This document shows, piece after piece, positions 31,451 through 36,668 of a stretch of 64,000 nucleotides of DNA. Where the stretch lies: NCBI GenBank assembly GCA_014240285.1, contig JAAZXI010000002.1, positions 3,184 to 67,183 of the forward strand, written 5' to 3'. The notes under the pieces are model-generated. The model saw nothing but the letters and a program-made list of their open reading frames with translations. It had not been told where the DNA came from and did no database searches. Position numbers and translations under genes: made by a program. Source of the DNA: Methanobacteriota archaeon (GTDB lineage: Archaea > Thermoplasmatota > Poseidoniia > Poseidoniales > Thalassarchaeaceae). The first letter of the stretch is position 1; the number at the start of each line of letters is the position of its first letter.

Positions 31451-31605
31451 TTGTGGTAATAATTATTTGAAACTAACATTTTTTTGTGGTATTTTGTATC
31501 ATTAAACTGTTGATATTTACCGAATTACTCAATTTTTGGGAATTTGTGGTTGCTAACCTTGCAGCACATCGAAGATTTGTTGTATTAGTTCCCTCTCGGC
31601 GCATT
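31451..31605. promoter_or_regulatory. 155-bp AT-rich intergenic spacer with three TTGTGGT direct repeats
   Basis: TTGTGGT occurs at 31451-31457, 31484-31490 and 31544-31550. This is the most AT-rich stretch I saw in the window. A TATA-like TGTATTAG lies about 23 nt upstream of ATG 31606. Confidence 0.5.
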
Positions 31606-34482
31606 ATGGCCATCATTCGCCAGGGGGTCTGGAAATGCCCGTCGTGTGAGCATCACCAGATATGGAGAGTACGGCAAGAGACAGCGCGTCTGGACAGGAG
31701 ATGCCAACACTGTGGGGGCAGAGTCAGGGCCACTCTGAATCGCTCTTCTAGCGGCCAAGGGAGGCGACGCAACGTGCAGATCTGGGAGAGAGAAGCCTCT
31801 CTCGACCCCGAAGAGCTGAGAATCGAAGCTGGACGCAGGAACGATGGGGCCGAGAAGACGGAAAGGGGTCTTGACTCCGTCGTCTCGTCCTCTCCCGGCG
31901 AAGCGTCTCAGAGTGACCTCCCAGTAATCTGGGGGGCGGGATGGGGGCCGGCCCGAGCCATGGAGTTCTCCAAGCCCCTTCGCTCCTCCGCTGCGAGGGC
32001 GGAACTGCTCAGGTTCTTCGCTGAGAGGCACGATGGACATCTGGCCATTGCCGCGGCCTGCTGGGATGGAATAGGCGTCCCGGACTCGTTCGACGGGGAG
32101 TCTTTTCACGAGTTCTCTAAGGAATATGTAGAAGCGTTCGGAGAATCTCTCCGAGACCGTTTGCTCTCCCCTGATCTGAGCTCGGTTCACTCTGTCGAGG
32201 TAATTCCGAGGAGAACCGCAGATACCCATCTGGAACGGCGTACTGCTAGACTGTTGACAGACACAGCACTGTGCCTCAGAAGGATTGCTCACTACTCGTC
32301 CATCACCCTCGAACAGCGCATTGATTGGCAGAGAATGATGACTCGGACGAGGGTCGTTGACGAGCATCTCAAGGACCTGTTCGCAAATGGTATCGAGACT
32401 CCCGATGGAGGAAGTTTTGGAGGCAAGGGCTTCCGCTCGACCTGGCAGGAAGGGATAGTTGCCTGCGCCAGCGCCATGCGCAGGGCCGTCGATTTATCCG
32501 CCGACGAGAGGTACCGTGCTGACATAGTCGCGCCAATGATTCGAGATGTCGGCCTAGCTCTTGCCATGGGGCAGACTGCACTCGAGGTCTTCTCCTCGCA
32601 GATAGGTAAGTCTGGATCTTACATGGACGGCGGACACGAGGGTGCCGGAGGGAGGGATCTCCACATTGGCAACTGGGAGAAAGGGATTCTCCCTCCCACC
32701 GCTCCTCTGCCAATCGCCAGTGCCACTACAACAGGAGTGGCTCTGGCTGCCTCTAGGCTCTCAGTAGATCGTTTTCATCTTGCCCCAGTAGGCGAGGGAT
32801 GCAGTAGCAACGGCGAGTTCTGGGAGGCTATGAACCTCGCTGGAGCTAGAGGTCTGCCGATATCGTTCATGATTCAGAACAATCAGATTGCACTCGACAC
32901 ATTCGTCACCGGCCAATCAGGAGTGGAGACCTTTGGTGACAAGGGCCATGCCATGGGGATTCCGGCATGGACCATTGACGGCTCTGACCCCGGACTGTTC
33001 TACGCATCGACAGCGGTAGCTAGGGAGTTCGCCCTCGACGGCTGTGGCTCCACCCTAATCCACGTCGAGACGATGCGCGGCTGCGGACATGCTCACCACC
33101 ATGATGACCTGTACCTTGGAGCTACCTCGGGCAACCCCCCTGGGTACGTCGACAGGGGGCTGCTGACGTACTGGGCCGAGAAGGACCCTGTGCCGAACCA
33201 TAGGGAGCTGCTGGTCCAATCGGGTTGCGACGAGCAGACACTGGATGCAATGGAGTCTGAGGAGCAGGCCTCGGCGGATGCGGCTCGTGAGGAGATGGAA
33301 GGCATGCCCTGGCCCGAGGGCTACACAGTGACAAAGGGGATCACGGGTCTGCATGACGCCCCCAGCCACACCGAGCAGTATGAGAGATTTGGACGCGAGG
33401 TCGGCCTCACTGAGTGTCCGCTAGAGTCCGGAGAGGAGGCTCTGGAGTTCTCTGACGCGTCCAACGCCCGAACCTACAGCAGAGCCATTCAGGATGCTAT
33501 GGCTTCGATAGCGGACAAACACGGCGATAGGGTCGTCTTCATGGGAGAAGACATGGAGATTGCTGGCGCCTTCGGACTGAATCTACCCCTGAAGGCAAGG
33601 GGTCACTCGGACAAGCTTCTCGATATGCCCCTGTCCGAAGCGGCCATAGTACACTCAGCCACCGGTGCAGCGCTTGGTGGGCTGCGTCCGGTGGCTGAGA
33701 TTCAATTCGGCGGCTTCGCGGCGCTAGCAATGAACGCGCTGGTCAACAACGCAGCTCAGTTGCGTTGGCGGTGGGGCGCTGAAGTCCCTGTCACGGTGCG
33801 CATTCCACTGGGAGGAAAGACCCGCAGTGGGCCGTTCCACGCCAATATAATCGAGTCGTGGTTCATCAACGACCCTGGACTGGTCATCGTATTCCCGAGC
33901 ACACCTCAAGACGCCTATGACCTCCTCATCGAATCGCACGAACTGGATGACCCGGTAATTTTCCTAGAGCACATAGGGCTCTACGGGCTCAGGGGTGGTC
34001 TGACGGGGTGGGGGGAATCAATCAGCCAATTGGTGGACAAGCATGCTGTTTACGAGCGTCTCGCTACAGGCGAGAGCTCGCTTGGGAAGGCGCGCGTGTT
34101 GAGGGGGGGCAGGGACATGACCATCGTGACTTGGGGCGCGATGGTGCACGTTGCCATGAAAGCAGCCTCTGAGGCCTCCAATCGCGGCATTGAGGTTGAG
34201 GTAGTGGATCTGAGAACCATCTCTCCCTTCGATGCTCAGACCTGCGTGGAATCAGTCAGGAGGACTGGGCGATTGCTGGTCCTGCAGGAGGCCCAATGGA
34301 CTGGAGGGTTTGGGAACACAGTCAGCAGCCGAATAATGGAAGAAGCGTTCTGGTGCCTAGAGAGCCCTCCAGTGGTAATCGGAGCGCTCGACACACCGGT
34401 GCCGTTCTCACCGCCTCTGGAAGATCACACGATGCCGACTGCCGAACTTGTCTCTAGGCACATCGATAGGATGTGTTCGTGA
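31606..34482 (+). CDS. fused 2-oxoacid dehydrogenase E1 alpha-beta (TPP-dependent) with a novel Zn-ribbon N-terminal extension
   Basis: The track ORF starts at GTG 31486, inside the AT-rich spacer, so ATG 31606 (MAIIRQGVWKCPSCEHH) is more likely. The Zn ribbon is CPSC-x18-CQHC. The E1alpha TPP motif is GEGCSSNGEFWEAMNLAGARGLPISFMIQNN. The E1beta part has VVFMGEDM...LLDMPLSEAAIVHSATGAALGGLRPVAEIQFGGF. Confidence 0.8.
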   Translation: MAIIRQGVWKCPSCEHHQIWRVRQETARLDRRCQHCGGRVRATLNRSSSGQGRRRNVQIWEREASLDPEELRIEAGRRNDGAEKTERGLDSVVSSSPGEASQSDLPVIWGAGWGPARAMEFSKPLRSSAARAELLRFFAERHDGHLAIAAACWDGIGVPDSFDGESFHEFSKEYVEAFGESLRDRLLSPDLSSVHSVEVIPRRTADTHLERRTARLLTDTALCLRRIAHYSSITLEQRIDWQRMMTRTRVVDEHLKDLFANGIETPDGGSFGGKGFRSTWQEGIVACASAMRRAVDLSADERYRADIVAPMIRDVGLALAMGQTALEVFSSQIGKSGSYMDGGHEGAGGRDLHIGNWEKGILPPTAPLPIASATTTGVALAASRLSVDRFHLAPVGEGCSSNGEFWEAMNLAGARGLPISFMIQNNQIALDTFVTGQSGVETFGDKGHAMGIPAWTIDGSDPGLFYASTAVAREFALDGCGSTLIHVETMRGCGHAHHHDDLYLGATSGNPPGYVDRGLLTYWAEKDPVPNHRELLVQSGCDEQTLDAMESEEQASADAAREEMEGMPWPEGYTVTKGITGLHDAPSHTEQYERFGREVGLTECPLESGEEALEFSDASNARTYSRAIQDAMASIADKHGDRVVFMGEDMEIAGAFGLNLPLKARGHSDKLLDMPLSEAAIVHSATGAALGGLRPVAEIQFGGFAALAMNALVNNAAQLRWRWGAEVPVTVRIPLGGKTRSGPFHANIIESWFINDPGLVIVFPSTPQDAYDLLIESHELDDPVIFLEHIGLYGLRGGLTGWGESISQLVDKHAVYERLATGESSLGKARVLRGGRDMTIVTWGAMVHVAMKAASEASNRGIEVEVVDLRTISPFDAQTCVESVRRTGRLLVLQEAQWTGGFGNTVSSRIMEEAFWCLESPPVVIGALDTPVPFSPPLEDHTMPTAELVSRHIDRMCS

Positions 34483-34538: not shown

Positions 34539-35486
34539 ATGACTACTCTGGCTATGGCCGATGGTCCCCTAGTATTGCTGGGATTCGTGCTACTGATGCT
34601 TGGAGGGGAGCTTGTCGTCCAAGGAGCCGTCACGATTGCTGGCAGACTGCGGGTGCCGCCTCTCTTGGTCGGATTCACCATCGTCGCCATCGGGACCTCG
34701 TTGCCCGAACTGGCTGTAGTCCTTGAAGCGGTCAACGAGGGAACTCACGAAATCGCCGTTGGGGGAGTGCTGGGCTCAAACGTGGCCAATGTGATGCTGG
34801 TGTTAGGAACAGCGTCCCTGCTCGGAGCCGCGTCGGACCCGGGGCAAGGAATACGCCGTGACGCTACAGCGGTGGCAGTAGCTACGGTAATACTGCTTGC
34901 TGCAGTTCTGATTGGTGAAATCGCATGGCAGTTCGGCGTCCTCATGCTGCTCGGTCTCGCTGCTTACTACTCCTATTCTTACCGCGCCTCCAAGGCAGAA
35001 GGTACCGATATCGAGGACAGTGACACATGGCTCCCCGACTACATCCTGCTCGCCGTTCCAGTGACGGTTTTTGGTGGATATATGATATGGACAGGGGCTG
35101 AGATGCTAGTAGAGGGTGCCACTGGACTAGCAGGTAGTTATGGCATTTCTGAGTCCGTCATCGGGCTATCTGTCGTAGCCCTGGGGACTTCTCTCCCGGA
35201 GCTAGCTGTTACCATTGTCGCTGGCCTCCGTGGTCAGGGTGGTGTCGCTGTGGGCAACGTACTCGGTTCCAACGTCATCAACATCCTAGGCATACTAGGT
35301 GTCGCTGCAACCTACTCTGGCGGCCTCATAATCGCCCCCGAGTTCGCCGCGAGAGACATCTGGGTGGTCGTTCTTACCTCCGGCTTCATCGTGGCCATGC
35401 TGCTCGATGAGCGCCACATAGGAAAGCGCGTCGGAGCCGCGATGGTAGGCGGCTATCTGGCTTACATGGCGATGTTGTACCTGTAG
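34539..35486 (+). CDS. Ca2+/cation antiporter (CaCA / YrbG family)
   Basis: 315 aa with about 10 TM segments. The two alpha-repeat signatures are GTSLPELAVVL and GTSLPELAVTI. Confidence 0.85.
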   Translation: MTTLAMADGPLVLLGFVLLMLGGELVVQGAVTIAGRLRVPPLLVGFTIVAIGTSLPELAVVLEAVNEGTHEIAVGGVLGSNVANVMLVLGTASLLGAASDPGQGIRRDATAVAVATVILLAAVLIGEIAWQFGVLMLLGLAAYYSYSYRASKAEGTDIEDSDTWLPDYILLAVPVTVFGGYMIWTGAEMLVEGATGLAGSYGISESVIGLSVVALGTSLPELAVTIVAGLRGQGGVAVGNVLGSNVINILGILGVAATYSGGLIIAPEFAARDIWVVVLTSGFIVAMLLDERHIGKRVGAAMVGGYLAYMAMLYL

Positions 35487-35522
35487 GCGAACCGCTAAGG
35501 CCGGGACCCCGGTCCTAGGGTC

Positions 35523-36668
35523 GTGGTAGACTTCGGCCTGTCAGAGGAGCAGACTATGCTCCAAGAGATGGCGCATGAATTCGCTGCAGCAGAGGTGCAG
35601 CCGAACGCAGCGAAGTGGGATCGTGACAGCAACTTCCCGCGCGAAGCCATCCGAAAGGCACACGAACTCGGGCTACTCACGGTCAAGATACCCGAGGAGT
35701 ACGGCGGCTACGGGATGGGTTCGTTCGAGGAAGTTCTCATCTGCGAGGAGATTGGCTGGGGTGACCCAGGTTTCGCCACCGCATCGGGCAGCACGATGTT
35801 GGCCTCGTACCCCTTGATTACGGGAGGTACCGAGGACCAAAAGCAGCGCTATCTGTCAAAAGTAGCGGACGGCTGTATCGCATCATATTGCGTCACCGAA
35901 CCAAACGCAGGAAGCGATGTCCAGTCAATCTCCACCCAAGCGGTTCGTGATGGTGATGACTACGTCATCAACGGCAGTAAGATGTGGATTACAGGTGCCG
36001 GGCAAGCTGACTGGTTCTTTGTGCTGGCATATACCGACAAGAAAGCAGGATACAAGGGGATGAGTGGCTTCATCATCGACGCTGACAGCTCTGGAATAGT
36101 ACTTGGAAAGAAGGAGGAGAATATGGGGCAGCGCTGCTCGGACACTAGGTCGGTTGACTTCAACGATGTCCGGGTGCCTGCGGAGAACCTCATCGGAGGG
36201 GAGGAGAACGGAGGATGGATGAATGCAATGAAGGCGTTTGATCTGTCTAGACCTACGATATCCGCGCATGCCGTTGGTAATGCCCGCGGAGCCATGGAGG
36301 AGGCGTTACAGTACGCCAACGAACGGAGCACCTTCGGCAAGCCAATCTACCGTCACCAAGCGATTTCGTTCATGATTGCAGACATGGCTACTAAAGTCGA
36401 GGCTGCGAGGTTACTTACCTGGAGGGCGGCGAAGAAAGCAGACTCAGGAGAGCGTAACACCCTCGAGGCTGCTCACGCCAAGCGCTTCTCTGCCGACATG
36501 GCGATGGAGGTCACCACCGAGGCTGTACAGGTCTTCGGCGGGTACGGTTACTCGGAGGAGTATCCAGTGGCTAGAAGGATGCGCGGAGCGAAGGTAGTCC
36601 AGATCTTCGAGGGTTCCAGTCAGATTCAACGCCTCATCATCAGCCGAGAGATGCTGAGAGATTCTTGA
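35523..36668 (+). CDS. acyl-CoA dehydrogenase
   Basis: 381 aa. It has YCVTEPNAGSD, KMWITGAG, and the C-terminal QIFEGSSQIQRLIISRE. Confidence 0.9.
   Translation: MVDFGLSEEQTMLQEMAHEFAAAEVQPNAAKWDRDSNFPREAIRKAHELGLLTVKIPEEYGGYGMGSFEEVLICEEIGWGDPGFATASGSTMLASYPLITGGTEDQKQRYLSKVADGCIASYCVTEPNAGSDVQSISTQAVRDGDDYVINGSKMWITGAGQADWFFVLAYTDKKAGYKGMSGFIIDADSSGIVLGKKEENMGQRCSDTRSVDFNDVRVPAENLIGGEENGGWMNAMKAFDLSRPTISAHAVGNARGAMEEALQYANERSTFGKPIYRHQAISFMIADMATKVEAARLLTWRAAKKADSGERNTLEAAHAKRFSADMAMEVTTEAVQVFGGYGYSEEYPVARRMRGAKVVQIFEGSSQIQRLIISREMLRDS

Follow-up and report, generated by a model that had tools for sequence, protein, structure and literature searches.

A 64,000-nucleotide stretch (the window; contig JAAZXI010000002.1 of assembly GCA_014240285.1, positions 3,184–67,183, forward strand) from a Thalassarchaeaceae archaeon encodes a 2-oxoacid dehydrogenase E1 protein with a long N-terminal extension. 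The open reading frame (ORF) lies on the forward strand, opens at 31486 (GTG) or 31606 (ATG) and ends at 34482. The ATG start gives a 958-aa protein, and residues are numbered from it. Pfam matches to E1_dh (residues 304–566, from profile position 45), Transket_pyr (623–793) and Transketolase_C (827–947) score 108.2, 78.2 and 125.9 bits, all above their gathering cut-offs of 22, 27 and 25.9. Because these domains occur in one chain, the protein is a fused E1alpha-E1beta. A BLASTP alignment with the genome's canonical E1alpha covers residues 245–540, so about 240 residues precede recognizable E1. The initial annotation, made by a model from the letters of this DNA without database searches, had placed the onset of E1alpha homology near codon 275; WQRMMTRTRVVDEHL (residues 241–255) falls at about codon 281 of the GTG-started frame.

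The E1beta part matches PDB E1beta chains in sequence at 1.7e-58 and superposes on 1UM9_B and 1W85_B (TMt 0.84–0.87, Foldseek). The alpha part is divergent, and its best PDB sequence E-value is 4.7e-22, covering residues 360–556. The motif for thiamine diphosphate (ThDP) and Mg2+ consists of G396-E397-G398, 26 residues and N425-N426, and the ThDP-activating beta-subunit glutamate is E678 within PLSE. Both are invariant in 114 aligned sequences. The usual motif has Asp in place of this Glu, a replacement taken as acceptable by comparison with human BCKDH E1alpha. The residues of G494-H495-A-H-H-H-D500 in the E1alpha part are also invariant in the family alignment. Activity of the enzyme is probable, given that its catalytic motifs are intact and do not vary. 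All NCBIfam cut-offs were missed, both for the pyruvate dehydrogenase (PDH) E1 beta and E1 alpha equivalogs NF008854, TIGR03181 and TIGR03182 (197.7 vs 454, 119.6 vs 411 and 86.1 vs 394 bits) and for the PDH E1 beta subfamily NF006667 (199.3 vs 321 bits), so a substrate class is not assignable. The surrounding active-site loop (window 33070–33110, residues ~489–503) reads R-G-C-G-H-A-H-H-H-D-D and is invariant; the usual E1alpha loop is Y-R-x-G-H-S-x-S-D-D.

No E2 or E3 gene neighbors this E1. One canonical E1alpha-E1beta-E2-E3 operon lies on contig C10 and encodes the only E2 (PF00198) of the assembly; the genome has two E1s. Alongside the canonical E1, the fused protein is the second E1 of this Marine Group II archaeon: a ThDP enzyme with E1alpha and E1beta in a single chain, encoded by an orphan gene. 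Because E2 is encoded on C10, the initial suggestion that the extension substitutes for a missing E2 partner is without basis. A 224-aa ORF follows E3 in the C10 operon.

A homologue search returned hundreds of proteins of ~951–960 aa with 66–90% identity at 100% coverage, from sources including Candidatus Poseidoniales, Thalassarchaeaceae and Thermoplasmatota; counts rest on the 121 listed. The pattern CxxC-x(15-25)-CxxC occurs in frame within the first 120 residues in 111 of them, and the other ten are shorter gene calls. Ribbon-bearing homologues keep the spacing CxxC-x18-CxxC. In the window protein CPSC occupies residues 11–14 and CQHC, after 18 residues, 33–36, exactly as first described, and the Arg/Ser-rich SSSGQGRRRN lies upstream of E1 at residues 47–56. 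C11, C14, C33 and C36 are each at least 90% conserved in the family alignment. Invariant residues of the extension are R46, S47, G50, R53, W60, E61, R62, E74, R78, W113, F121, F137, E140, R141, G144, E198, P201, R203, R211, R212, R215, D219, C223, R225 and R226. Residues ~80–100 are variable. The ratio of nonsynonymous to synonymous substitution rates (dN/dS) against a congener is 0.07 for residues 1–45, 0.26 for 46–95, 0.15 for 100–235 and 0.05 for the core. No stop codon separates ribbon and E1 in the 13 genomes of the ribbon-bearing clade or in the 111 ribbon-bearing homologues.

Protein conservation starts at the Met encoded by ATG 31606, and the in-frame sequence 5′ of it, 6–43 codons long, is unconserved. 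The internal Met that had been raised as a possible start (M119, MEFSKPL) is unconserved and is Leu in the consensus; the family alignment has no conserved internal Met, and none at ~100. Judged from these patterns of conservation, the extension is real, translated and fused to E1. Residues 1 to ~244 match no Pfam, NCBIfam or PHROG family above threshold, with sub-threshold Zn-ribbon noise only, and PDB sequence searches with the N-terminal 235–275 aa and pieces of it gave no match at E≤10. The helical-looking region that the initial annotation could not place, including LRFFAERHDGHLAIAAACWDG (residues 134–154; the stretch from residue 134 onward begins LRFFAERHDGHL), thus still fits no family.

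Profile searches covered 301 genomes sampled across the phylum. The ribbon profile matched 14 of these, all in the family Thalassarchaeaceae (genera g1, g4, g5, g6 and g8) and always inside an open frame of ~956–1001 aa. The helical-part profile (residues 99–240) matched 64 of 64 sampled Poseidoniales genomes, from both families, but had no match in the class-level sisters or elsewhere among the genomes sampled from the phylum. In ribbon-less genera the open frame is 865–914 aa, and the protein begins with MSQ(G/D)(D/E)LPxIxGxxWxP, equivalent to residue ~101. On this distribution the extension is not the single ~235-aa unit first described; its two modules differ in age, the helical domain being order-wide and the ribbon limited to five genera. 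The ribbon does not occur as a separate upstream gene. A profile search for one in ribbon-less genomes found none, and the upstream gene there is a membrane protein.

Gene order in ribbon-less genomes is a MoeB-like gene, a membrane-protein gene and E1, which in two loci is immediately followed by an acyl-CoA dehydrogenase gene. In ribbon-bearing genomes it is TrxR (or a small 125-aa ORF), MoeB, an AT-rich spacer and ribbon::E1. Ribbon and spacer thus stand where ribbon-less genomes have the membrane-protein gene. Of the 14 ribbon-bearing cores, 13 group in a single clade of the E1 tree, with support 90/99. Ribbon-bearing genera differ by ~50% in the ribbon segment, yet Cys, Arg, Gly and Trp positions in it do not vary, and no loss or truncation of the ribbon occurs among the 13 genomes of the clade. 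A single gain in a Thalassarchaeaceae sub-clade is likely, though not proven.

The ribbon module was modeled with AlphaFold2 (AF2), both in the full-length protein (predicted local distance difference test, pLDDT, 72.5) and in residues 1–262 alone (pLDDT 80.8), and the same elements were predicted in both. Predicted ribbon strands are 5–10, 17–22, 28–32 and 39–43 (pLDDT 77–85). C11 and C14 lie between the first two strands and C33 and C36 between the last two, giving two CxxC knuckles at hairpin tips. The ribbon is followed by a disordered loop (46–55, pLDDT <50), a strand (58–62), a helix (68–93) and a disordered linker, with pLDDT <50 over residues 84–97. Residues 1–80 have an isoelectric point (pI) of 10.9 and a net charge of +7; for the E1 core these values are 4.9 and −40. 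Thirteen positions of the module are at least 80% Lys or Arg in the alignment. No curated Zn-ribbon family was reached: the best Pfam score was 13.6 bits for Zn_ribbon_InsA (cut-off 26.1), followed by IS1595 (12.9) and TFIIB (10), and NCBIfam gave a weak match to "putative Zn-ribbon RNA-binding protein" (E 0.12). Foldseek comparison of the residue 1–262 model with the PDB, one of the checks proposed at the outset, gave no match at E≤1e-3; the best were eS27-like ribosomal and MCM ribbons at non-significant E-values of 1–5. The ribosomal matches are chains of ~60–80 aa from the Thermococcus kodakarensis 70S (6skf_Ax), Pyrococcus abyssi 30S (7zhg_W) and C. elegans 80S ribosomes.

Relatives of the ribbon were found in mobile elements. 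A phmmer search of residues 1–240 against 1.84 billion cluster representatives gave 98 matches, mostly fragments of the same E1 family. The only others were small standalone proteins of 100–176 aa (E 1e-8 to 8e-4), of which about a dozen complete ones align over the ribbon, the RGR loop, the strand and the E...RN helix; this helix motif is common to the fused module and the standalone proteins. A profile search found 17 standalone clusters. Their longest contigs are 712–4,950 nt, and ten of these are 4.6–4.95 kb. In six contigs from different assemblers, the two ends are direct repeats whose length is that assembler's k (30, 55 or 141), and some recur as rotated copies in other, independent samples, so the contigs are circles of 4.59–4.77 kb. 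They apparently belong to an undescribed family, with contigs L037/L038, L042/L043, L044, L045–L047 and L048/L049.

Besides the zinc-ribbon protein, the compared elements have in common a ~230-aa protein and one of ~125–142 aa whose N-terminus is Arg-rich. All five carry the ribbon gene: BLAST ties four of them together through it, and the fifth, L042, encodes ribbon protein P0191. Some elements carry Dam or C5 methylases. No Rep or capsid gene was recognizable, and the other genes had no Pfam or PHROG match (all ORFs of L037 were scanned, with nothing usable). The standalone ribbon proteins likewise match no Pfam or PHROG family. They have a pI of 11–11.8 over the first 85 residues, and most have acidic tails. 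Directly after the ribbon they carry an AT-hook-like PGxRGRP(R), with RGRP in 13 of 26 and RGKP in others. RGRP is the AT-hook core, and the AT-hook binds the minor groove of AT-rich DNA. In tblastn searches of element proteins against the archaeal genome, only this N-terminus was matched (E 7e-11 to 1.7e-8). Foldseek against BFVD matched the viral proteins A0A345N471 (134 aa, E 5.6e-4) and A0A345N4I4 (124 aa, E 5e-3), both with probability 1.00. The standalone ribbon was not found in the phage collection by tblastn, had no confirmed match in IMG/VR viral contigs, and was not found as a gene in the GTDB species genomes scanned, where the one match was another E1 fusion. On the strength of these alignments, the ribbon module is homologous to a core gene of ~4.6–4.8 kb circular mobile elements. 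Transfer from element to host would be the parsimonious direction, because the diverse elements compared have the ribbon in common, and its only cellular form is the fusion in one sub-clade. At L039:1070–1180 and L044:~1660–1797, small unannotated ORFs with CxxC...CxxC motifs (for example MKCPTCGERMRRM...WWCPC) sit between the ribbon gene and the GTGG boxes, and may encode a second mini zinc-finger protein.

The AT-rich spacer upstream of the fused gene contains three TTGTGGT boxes (Table 1). Their TGGT cores are invariant and at conserved positions in an alignment of 12 ribbon-bearing genomes from four genera, and the array is absent upstream of ribbon-less orthologues. A cluster of three W-TGTGGT-W sites occurs once in the genome. 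TTGTGGT itself is not enriched across the genome (126 occurrences against 138 expected) and so is no general promoter motif. A proximal element, CGAw...TTGTTGTAyTA, is also conserved across the 12 genomes, with T.GT.GTA..A invariant and CGA nearly so, and TTGTTGTAYTA has one occurrence in the genome. This is likely the promoter, resembling a transcription factor B recognition element (BRE) and TATA box, and its position suggests a leaderless or near-leaderless mRNA. Rfam gave only a chance-level match on the spacer (E 0.33). In three of the circular elements the ribbon operon is preceded by a pair of direct GTGG(T/G)G boxes with a spacing of 36 nt; the proximal member of the pair is ~40 nt ahead of the first ATG in L037 and L042.

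Table 1. Features of the orphan E1 locus and the canonical operon of the same genome. Positions are those of the window unless a contig is named.
Feature	Position	Strand	Basis
AT-rich 155-bp spacer between MoeB-like gene and E1 gene	31451..31605	+	Conserved in ribbon-bearing genomes
Three direct TTGTGGT boxes, spacing 33 and 60 nt	31451, 31484, 31544	+	Positional conservation
Putative proximal BRE/TATA-like element CGAAGATTTGTTGTATTA (also as TTGTTGTA), ending 18 nt before ATG 31606	31570..31587	+	Conserved
Predicted C4 zinc ribbon, residues 1–45 (C11, C14, C33, C36)	31606..31740	+	AF2, Cys conservation, dN/dS, element homologues
Invariant Arg/Gly loop R46-S47-x-S/T-G50-x-G52-R53-x-R and strand I-W60-E61-R62, residues 46–66	31741..31803	+	Alignment
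Long helix, residues 67–93, with invariant E74 and R78 and conserved N79	31804..31884	+	Both AF2 models
Variable, acidic, disordered linker, residues ~94–100	31885..31905	+	Length and sequence vary in alignment; pLDDT
Order-wide helical N-domain, residues ~101–244 (LPxIWGxGWxP, FAERHDGH, Arg-rich helix 205–232)	31906..32337	+	Profile search, AF2
E1alpha (ThDP-binding) part, residues 245–573	32338..33324	+	Pfam E1_dh, BLASTP to canonical E1alpha, invariant motifs
E1beta part, residues 618–958 plus stop; PLSE with E678	33457..34482	+	Pfam Transket_pyr and Transketolase_C, PDB, Foldseek
Canonical 2-oxoacid dehydrogenase operon: E1alpha, E1beta, E2 (lipoyl domain, peripheral subunit-binding domain, catalytic domain), E3, and a downstream 224-aa ORF	C10:16385–22340	-	Same genome

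We tentatively propose that a captured DNA-binding ribbon module makes this E1 self-regulating, a reading to which we give somewhat less than an even chance. A Thalassarchaeaceae sub-clade would have acquired the module from a circular mobile element, probably once. The module would have arrived with the 155-bp AT-rich spacer and its three TTGTGGT boxes, replacing the membrane-protein gene. The ribbon and its degenerate AT-hook-like loop would then serve as a DNA-binding handle that tethers the dimeric E1 to the box array before its own promoter, and the E1, like PutA, would be a trigger enzyme that regulates itself. The initial annotation had suggested a regulatory or tethering domain. The regulatory part of that suggestion is favored here, since the relatives are basic element proteins, many with RGRP, and the ribbon co-occurs with the box array; these features point to nucleic-acid binding and regulation rather than to tethering of E2. 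Zn binding, DNA binding, box recognition, autoregulation and transfer direction are all inferred. The fullest version, in which the clade captured both the operator-binding ribbon protein and the promoter/operator DNA of a small circular virus or plasmid and fused them to a catabolic ThDP enzyme, is doubtful.

Several observations weigh against self-regulation. The basis for an autoregulator is circumstantial, namely that the boxes are present with the ribbon and absent without it, and that the module is basic. DNA and Zn binding of the module are predictions from sequence and model. The AT-hook core R-G-R-P is lacking in the window protein, which reads S-G-Q-G-R-R-R-N, and the fused family has (S/T)G(K/Q/R)GRxR with no Pro. 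The best, non-significant, PDB fold matches are ribosomal and MCM ribbons, and zinc ribbons mediate protein-protein and RNA contacts too. L042 box TAATTGTGGGGATAATT and window box 1 TAATTGTGGTAATAATT are identical at 15 of 17 positions, a match noticed post hoc. With a weight matrix built from the element boxes, window box 1 ranks 66th of 2.66 million genome positions, and boxes 2 and 3 rank ~11,000 and ~33,000. Because the matrix supports only one of three host boxes, homology of host and element boxes is suggestive only. The boxes could be sites of another factor, terminator or promoter relics of captured DNA, or plain promoter elements. The remaining ribbon-bearing core, from G063 (g5), has a long branch in the E1 tree, which leaves a single gain short of proof. 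The helical domain offers no functional clue beyond its conservation.

That domain is confidently modeled over residues 127–261 (pLDDT mostly 88–96, with a dip to 73–78 over 181–210). It has no Pfam match and no Foldseek PDB match at E≤1e-3, and canonical E1alpha N-termini do not match it either. Most likely it is the enzyme's own adaptor or regulatory domain, although this is a guess. Six invariant Arg lie between residues 203 and 226 in the Arg-rich helix; speculatively, an acidic partner (a lipoyl domain, for instance) would fit this helix. A faint likeness of residues 125–145 to a peripheral subunit-binding domain was dropped, as Pfam gave no E3_binding match.

The ribbon could instead be a protein-protein tether or assembly handle that docks E1 to the shared E2/E3 encoded on C10 or to another partner, or that oligomerizes it, with the helical domain as an adaptor. 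Sharing is plausible with one E2 and two E1s in the genome, protein contacts are often made by zinc ribbons, and E1s with N-terminal partner-binding or fused domains exist (E. coli-type E1p, OdhA/KGD, the last two also among the fold matches). An acyl-CoA dehydrogenase gene near or adjacent downstream of E1 in several genera also suggests an acyl-CoA product. However, most Poseidoniales keep the same E1 in the same kind of genome without the ribbon, so the ribbon is not needed for E2 docking; the 4.7-kb elements that house the ribbon relatives encode neither E1 nor E2; and a tether leaves the extreme basicity, the RGRP of the relatives and the co-acquired box array unexplained. We consider such a role for the ribbon unlikely; the helical domain may dock to the shared E2. 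Binding of RNA (its own leaderless mRNA, rRNA or other) in translational control or localization is less probable still. A basic ribbon with an Arg/Gly loop does resemble small ribosomal zinc-ribbon proteins, as the fold matches and the NCBIfam RNA-binding match recall, but these matches are all far below significance, and the DNA box array and the AT-hook-like RGRP would be left unaccounted for.

It is quite improbable that the ribbon is a tolerated accident, an inert peptide read through from an element fragment that was kept for its promoter. The module did come with new upstream DNA in place of a membrane-protein gene, the spacer is promoter-like, and the variable linker suggests loose attachment. 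Against this, the ribbon dN/dS is as low as 0.07, close to the 0.05 of the catalytic core, and the module has kept its invariant residues across genera ~50% different in this segment, with no losses or truncations in the 13 genomes of the clade. An untranslated 5′ leader followed by an internal start is close to refuted. Some automatic gene calls begin at V57 or later and give products of 862–933 aa, but the dN/dS of 0.07–0.26 over residues 1–95, the frame open in all relatives, the lack of a conserved internal Met (Leu replacing M119 in the consensus) and the conserved promoter-like element ~20 nt before the ATG all argue for translation from 31606.

The architecture was compared with known systems. 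Heterotetrameric alpha2beta2 E1 enzymes (Geobacillus stearothermophilus PDH E1 1W85, Thermus thermophilus branched-chain E1 1UM9, Thermoplasma-type archaeal complexes) have the same domains, ThDP motif, His-rich loop and PLSE Glu. In contrast to these, the window protein has alpha and beta fused, a divergent alpha part and ~240 extra N-terminal residues, and its gene lies away from the E2/E3 operon. E. coli-type E1p has an N-terminal E2-binding segment, and actinobacterial OdhA/KGD (8P5V, 2YID) has an E2-like acyltransferase domain before E1o. These enzymes likewise place a functional module N-terminal to the ThDP core, but they are homodimeric or hexameric single-chain E1o/E1p rather than fused alpha-beta, and their modules have no sequence or fold likeness to the helical domain or the ribbon. 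Archaeal/eukaryotic eS27 and MCM N-terminal ribbons share the predicted topology of two beta-hairpins with CxxC knuckles; their E-values are 1–5, there is no sequence relationship, and the continuation into Arg/Gly loop, strand and helix is specific to the window family. The AT-hook likeness lies in the PGxRGRP(R) of the standalone relatives and in the AT-rich spacer of the host gene. The window protein, with GQGRRR and no Pro, has no AT-hook profile match, and to our knowledge AT-hooks are not normally joined to zinc ribbons.

For the proposed self-regulation, the nearest precedents are the trigger enzymes PutA, BirA and NadR (PMC8249747); the precedent is also treated in PMC3602430. PutA has an N-terminal ribbon-helix-helix DNA-binding domain on proline dehydrogenase, and the window protein similarly joins a large catabolic enzyme to a small basic domain at its N-terminus, with candidate operator repeats before its own gene. 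It differs from these enzymes in being archaeal, in having a predicted C4 zinc ribbon rather than a ribbon-helix-helix or winged helix-turn-helix fold, in the mobile-element relationship of its module, and in that DNA binding is predicted.

The enzyme kind is well known, but this architectural variant of it is new, combining an unmatched helical domain with a zinc ribbon apparently derived from mobile elements. Among the papers in the library searched, none describes this N-terminal extension. The orphan E1 with its unmatched helical domain is a new E1 architecture, conserved in every sampled Poseidoniales genome. Because an order-wide orphan E1 carries a domain without relatives, E1 regulation or partner selection here probably follows an unrecognized mode. 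Marine Group II, which ranks among the most abundant groups of planktonic archaea, is uncultured, so statements on function there derive from sequence alone. If the fullest version of the self-regulation reading is correct, this would be the first archaeal trigger enzyme of the PutA style, and Poseidoniales would be the first host link for the undescribed ~4.7-kb circular elements. The homology also points to likely hosts of 4.6–4.8 kb circles without recognizable genes, and it offers a case of exaptation in which a mobile-element core gene was apparently taken into an enzyme of central metabolism. If the ribbon is inert or purely structural, the fusion is a lineage-specific one of modest interest.

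In ribbon-less Thalassarchaeaceae genera (L033, L036) an acyl-CoA dehydrogenase gene comes directly after the orphan E1, whereas in the window (34539–36668) a Ca2+/cation antiporter (CaCA) gene is inserted between the two. With such a neighbor, the orphan E1 may have a catabolic role in branched-chain or acyl-CoA metabolism. Database proteins P0146, P0149, P0153 and P0155 begin with the ribbon or with a transporter end and then diverge; they look like chimeric or frameshifted metagenome calls rather than alternative architectures. Genomes of ribbon-bearing genera are 1.3–1.6 Mb and those of ribbon-less Thalassarchaeaceae and Poseidoniaceae 1.6–2.2 Mb, and the fusion coincides with genome streamlining.

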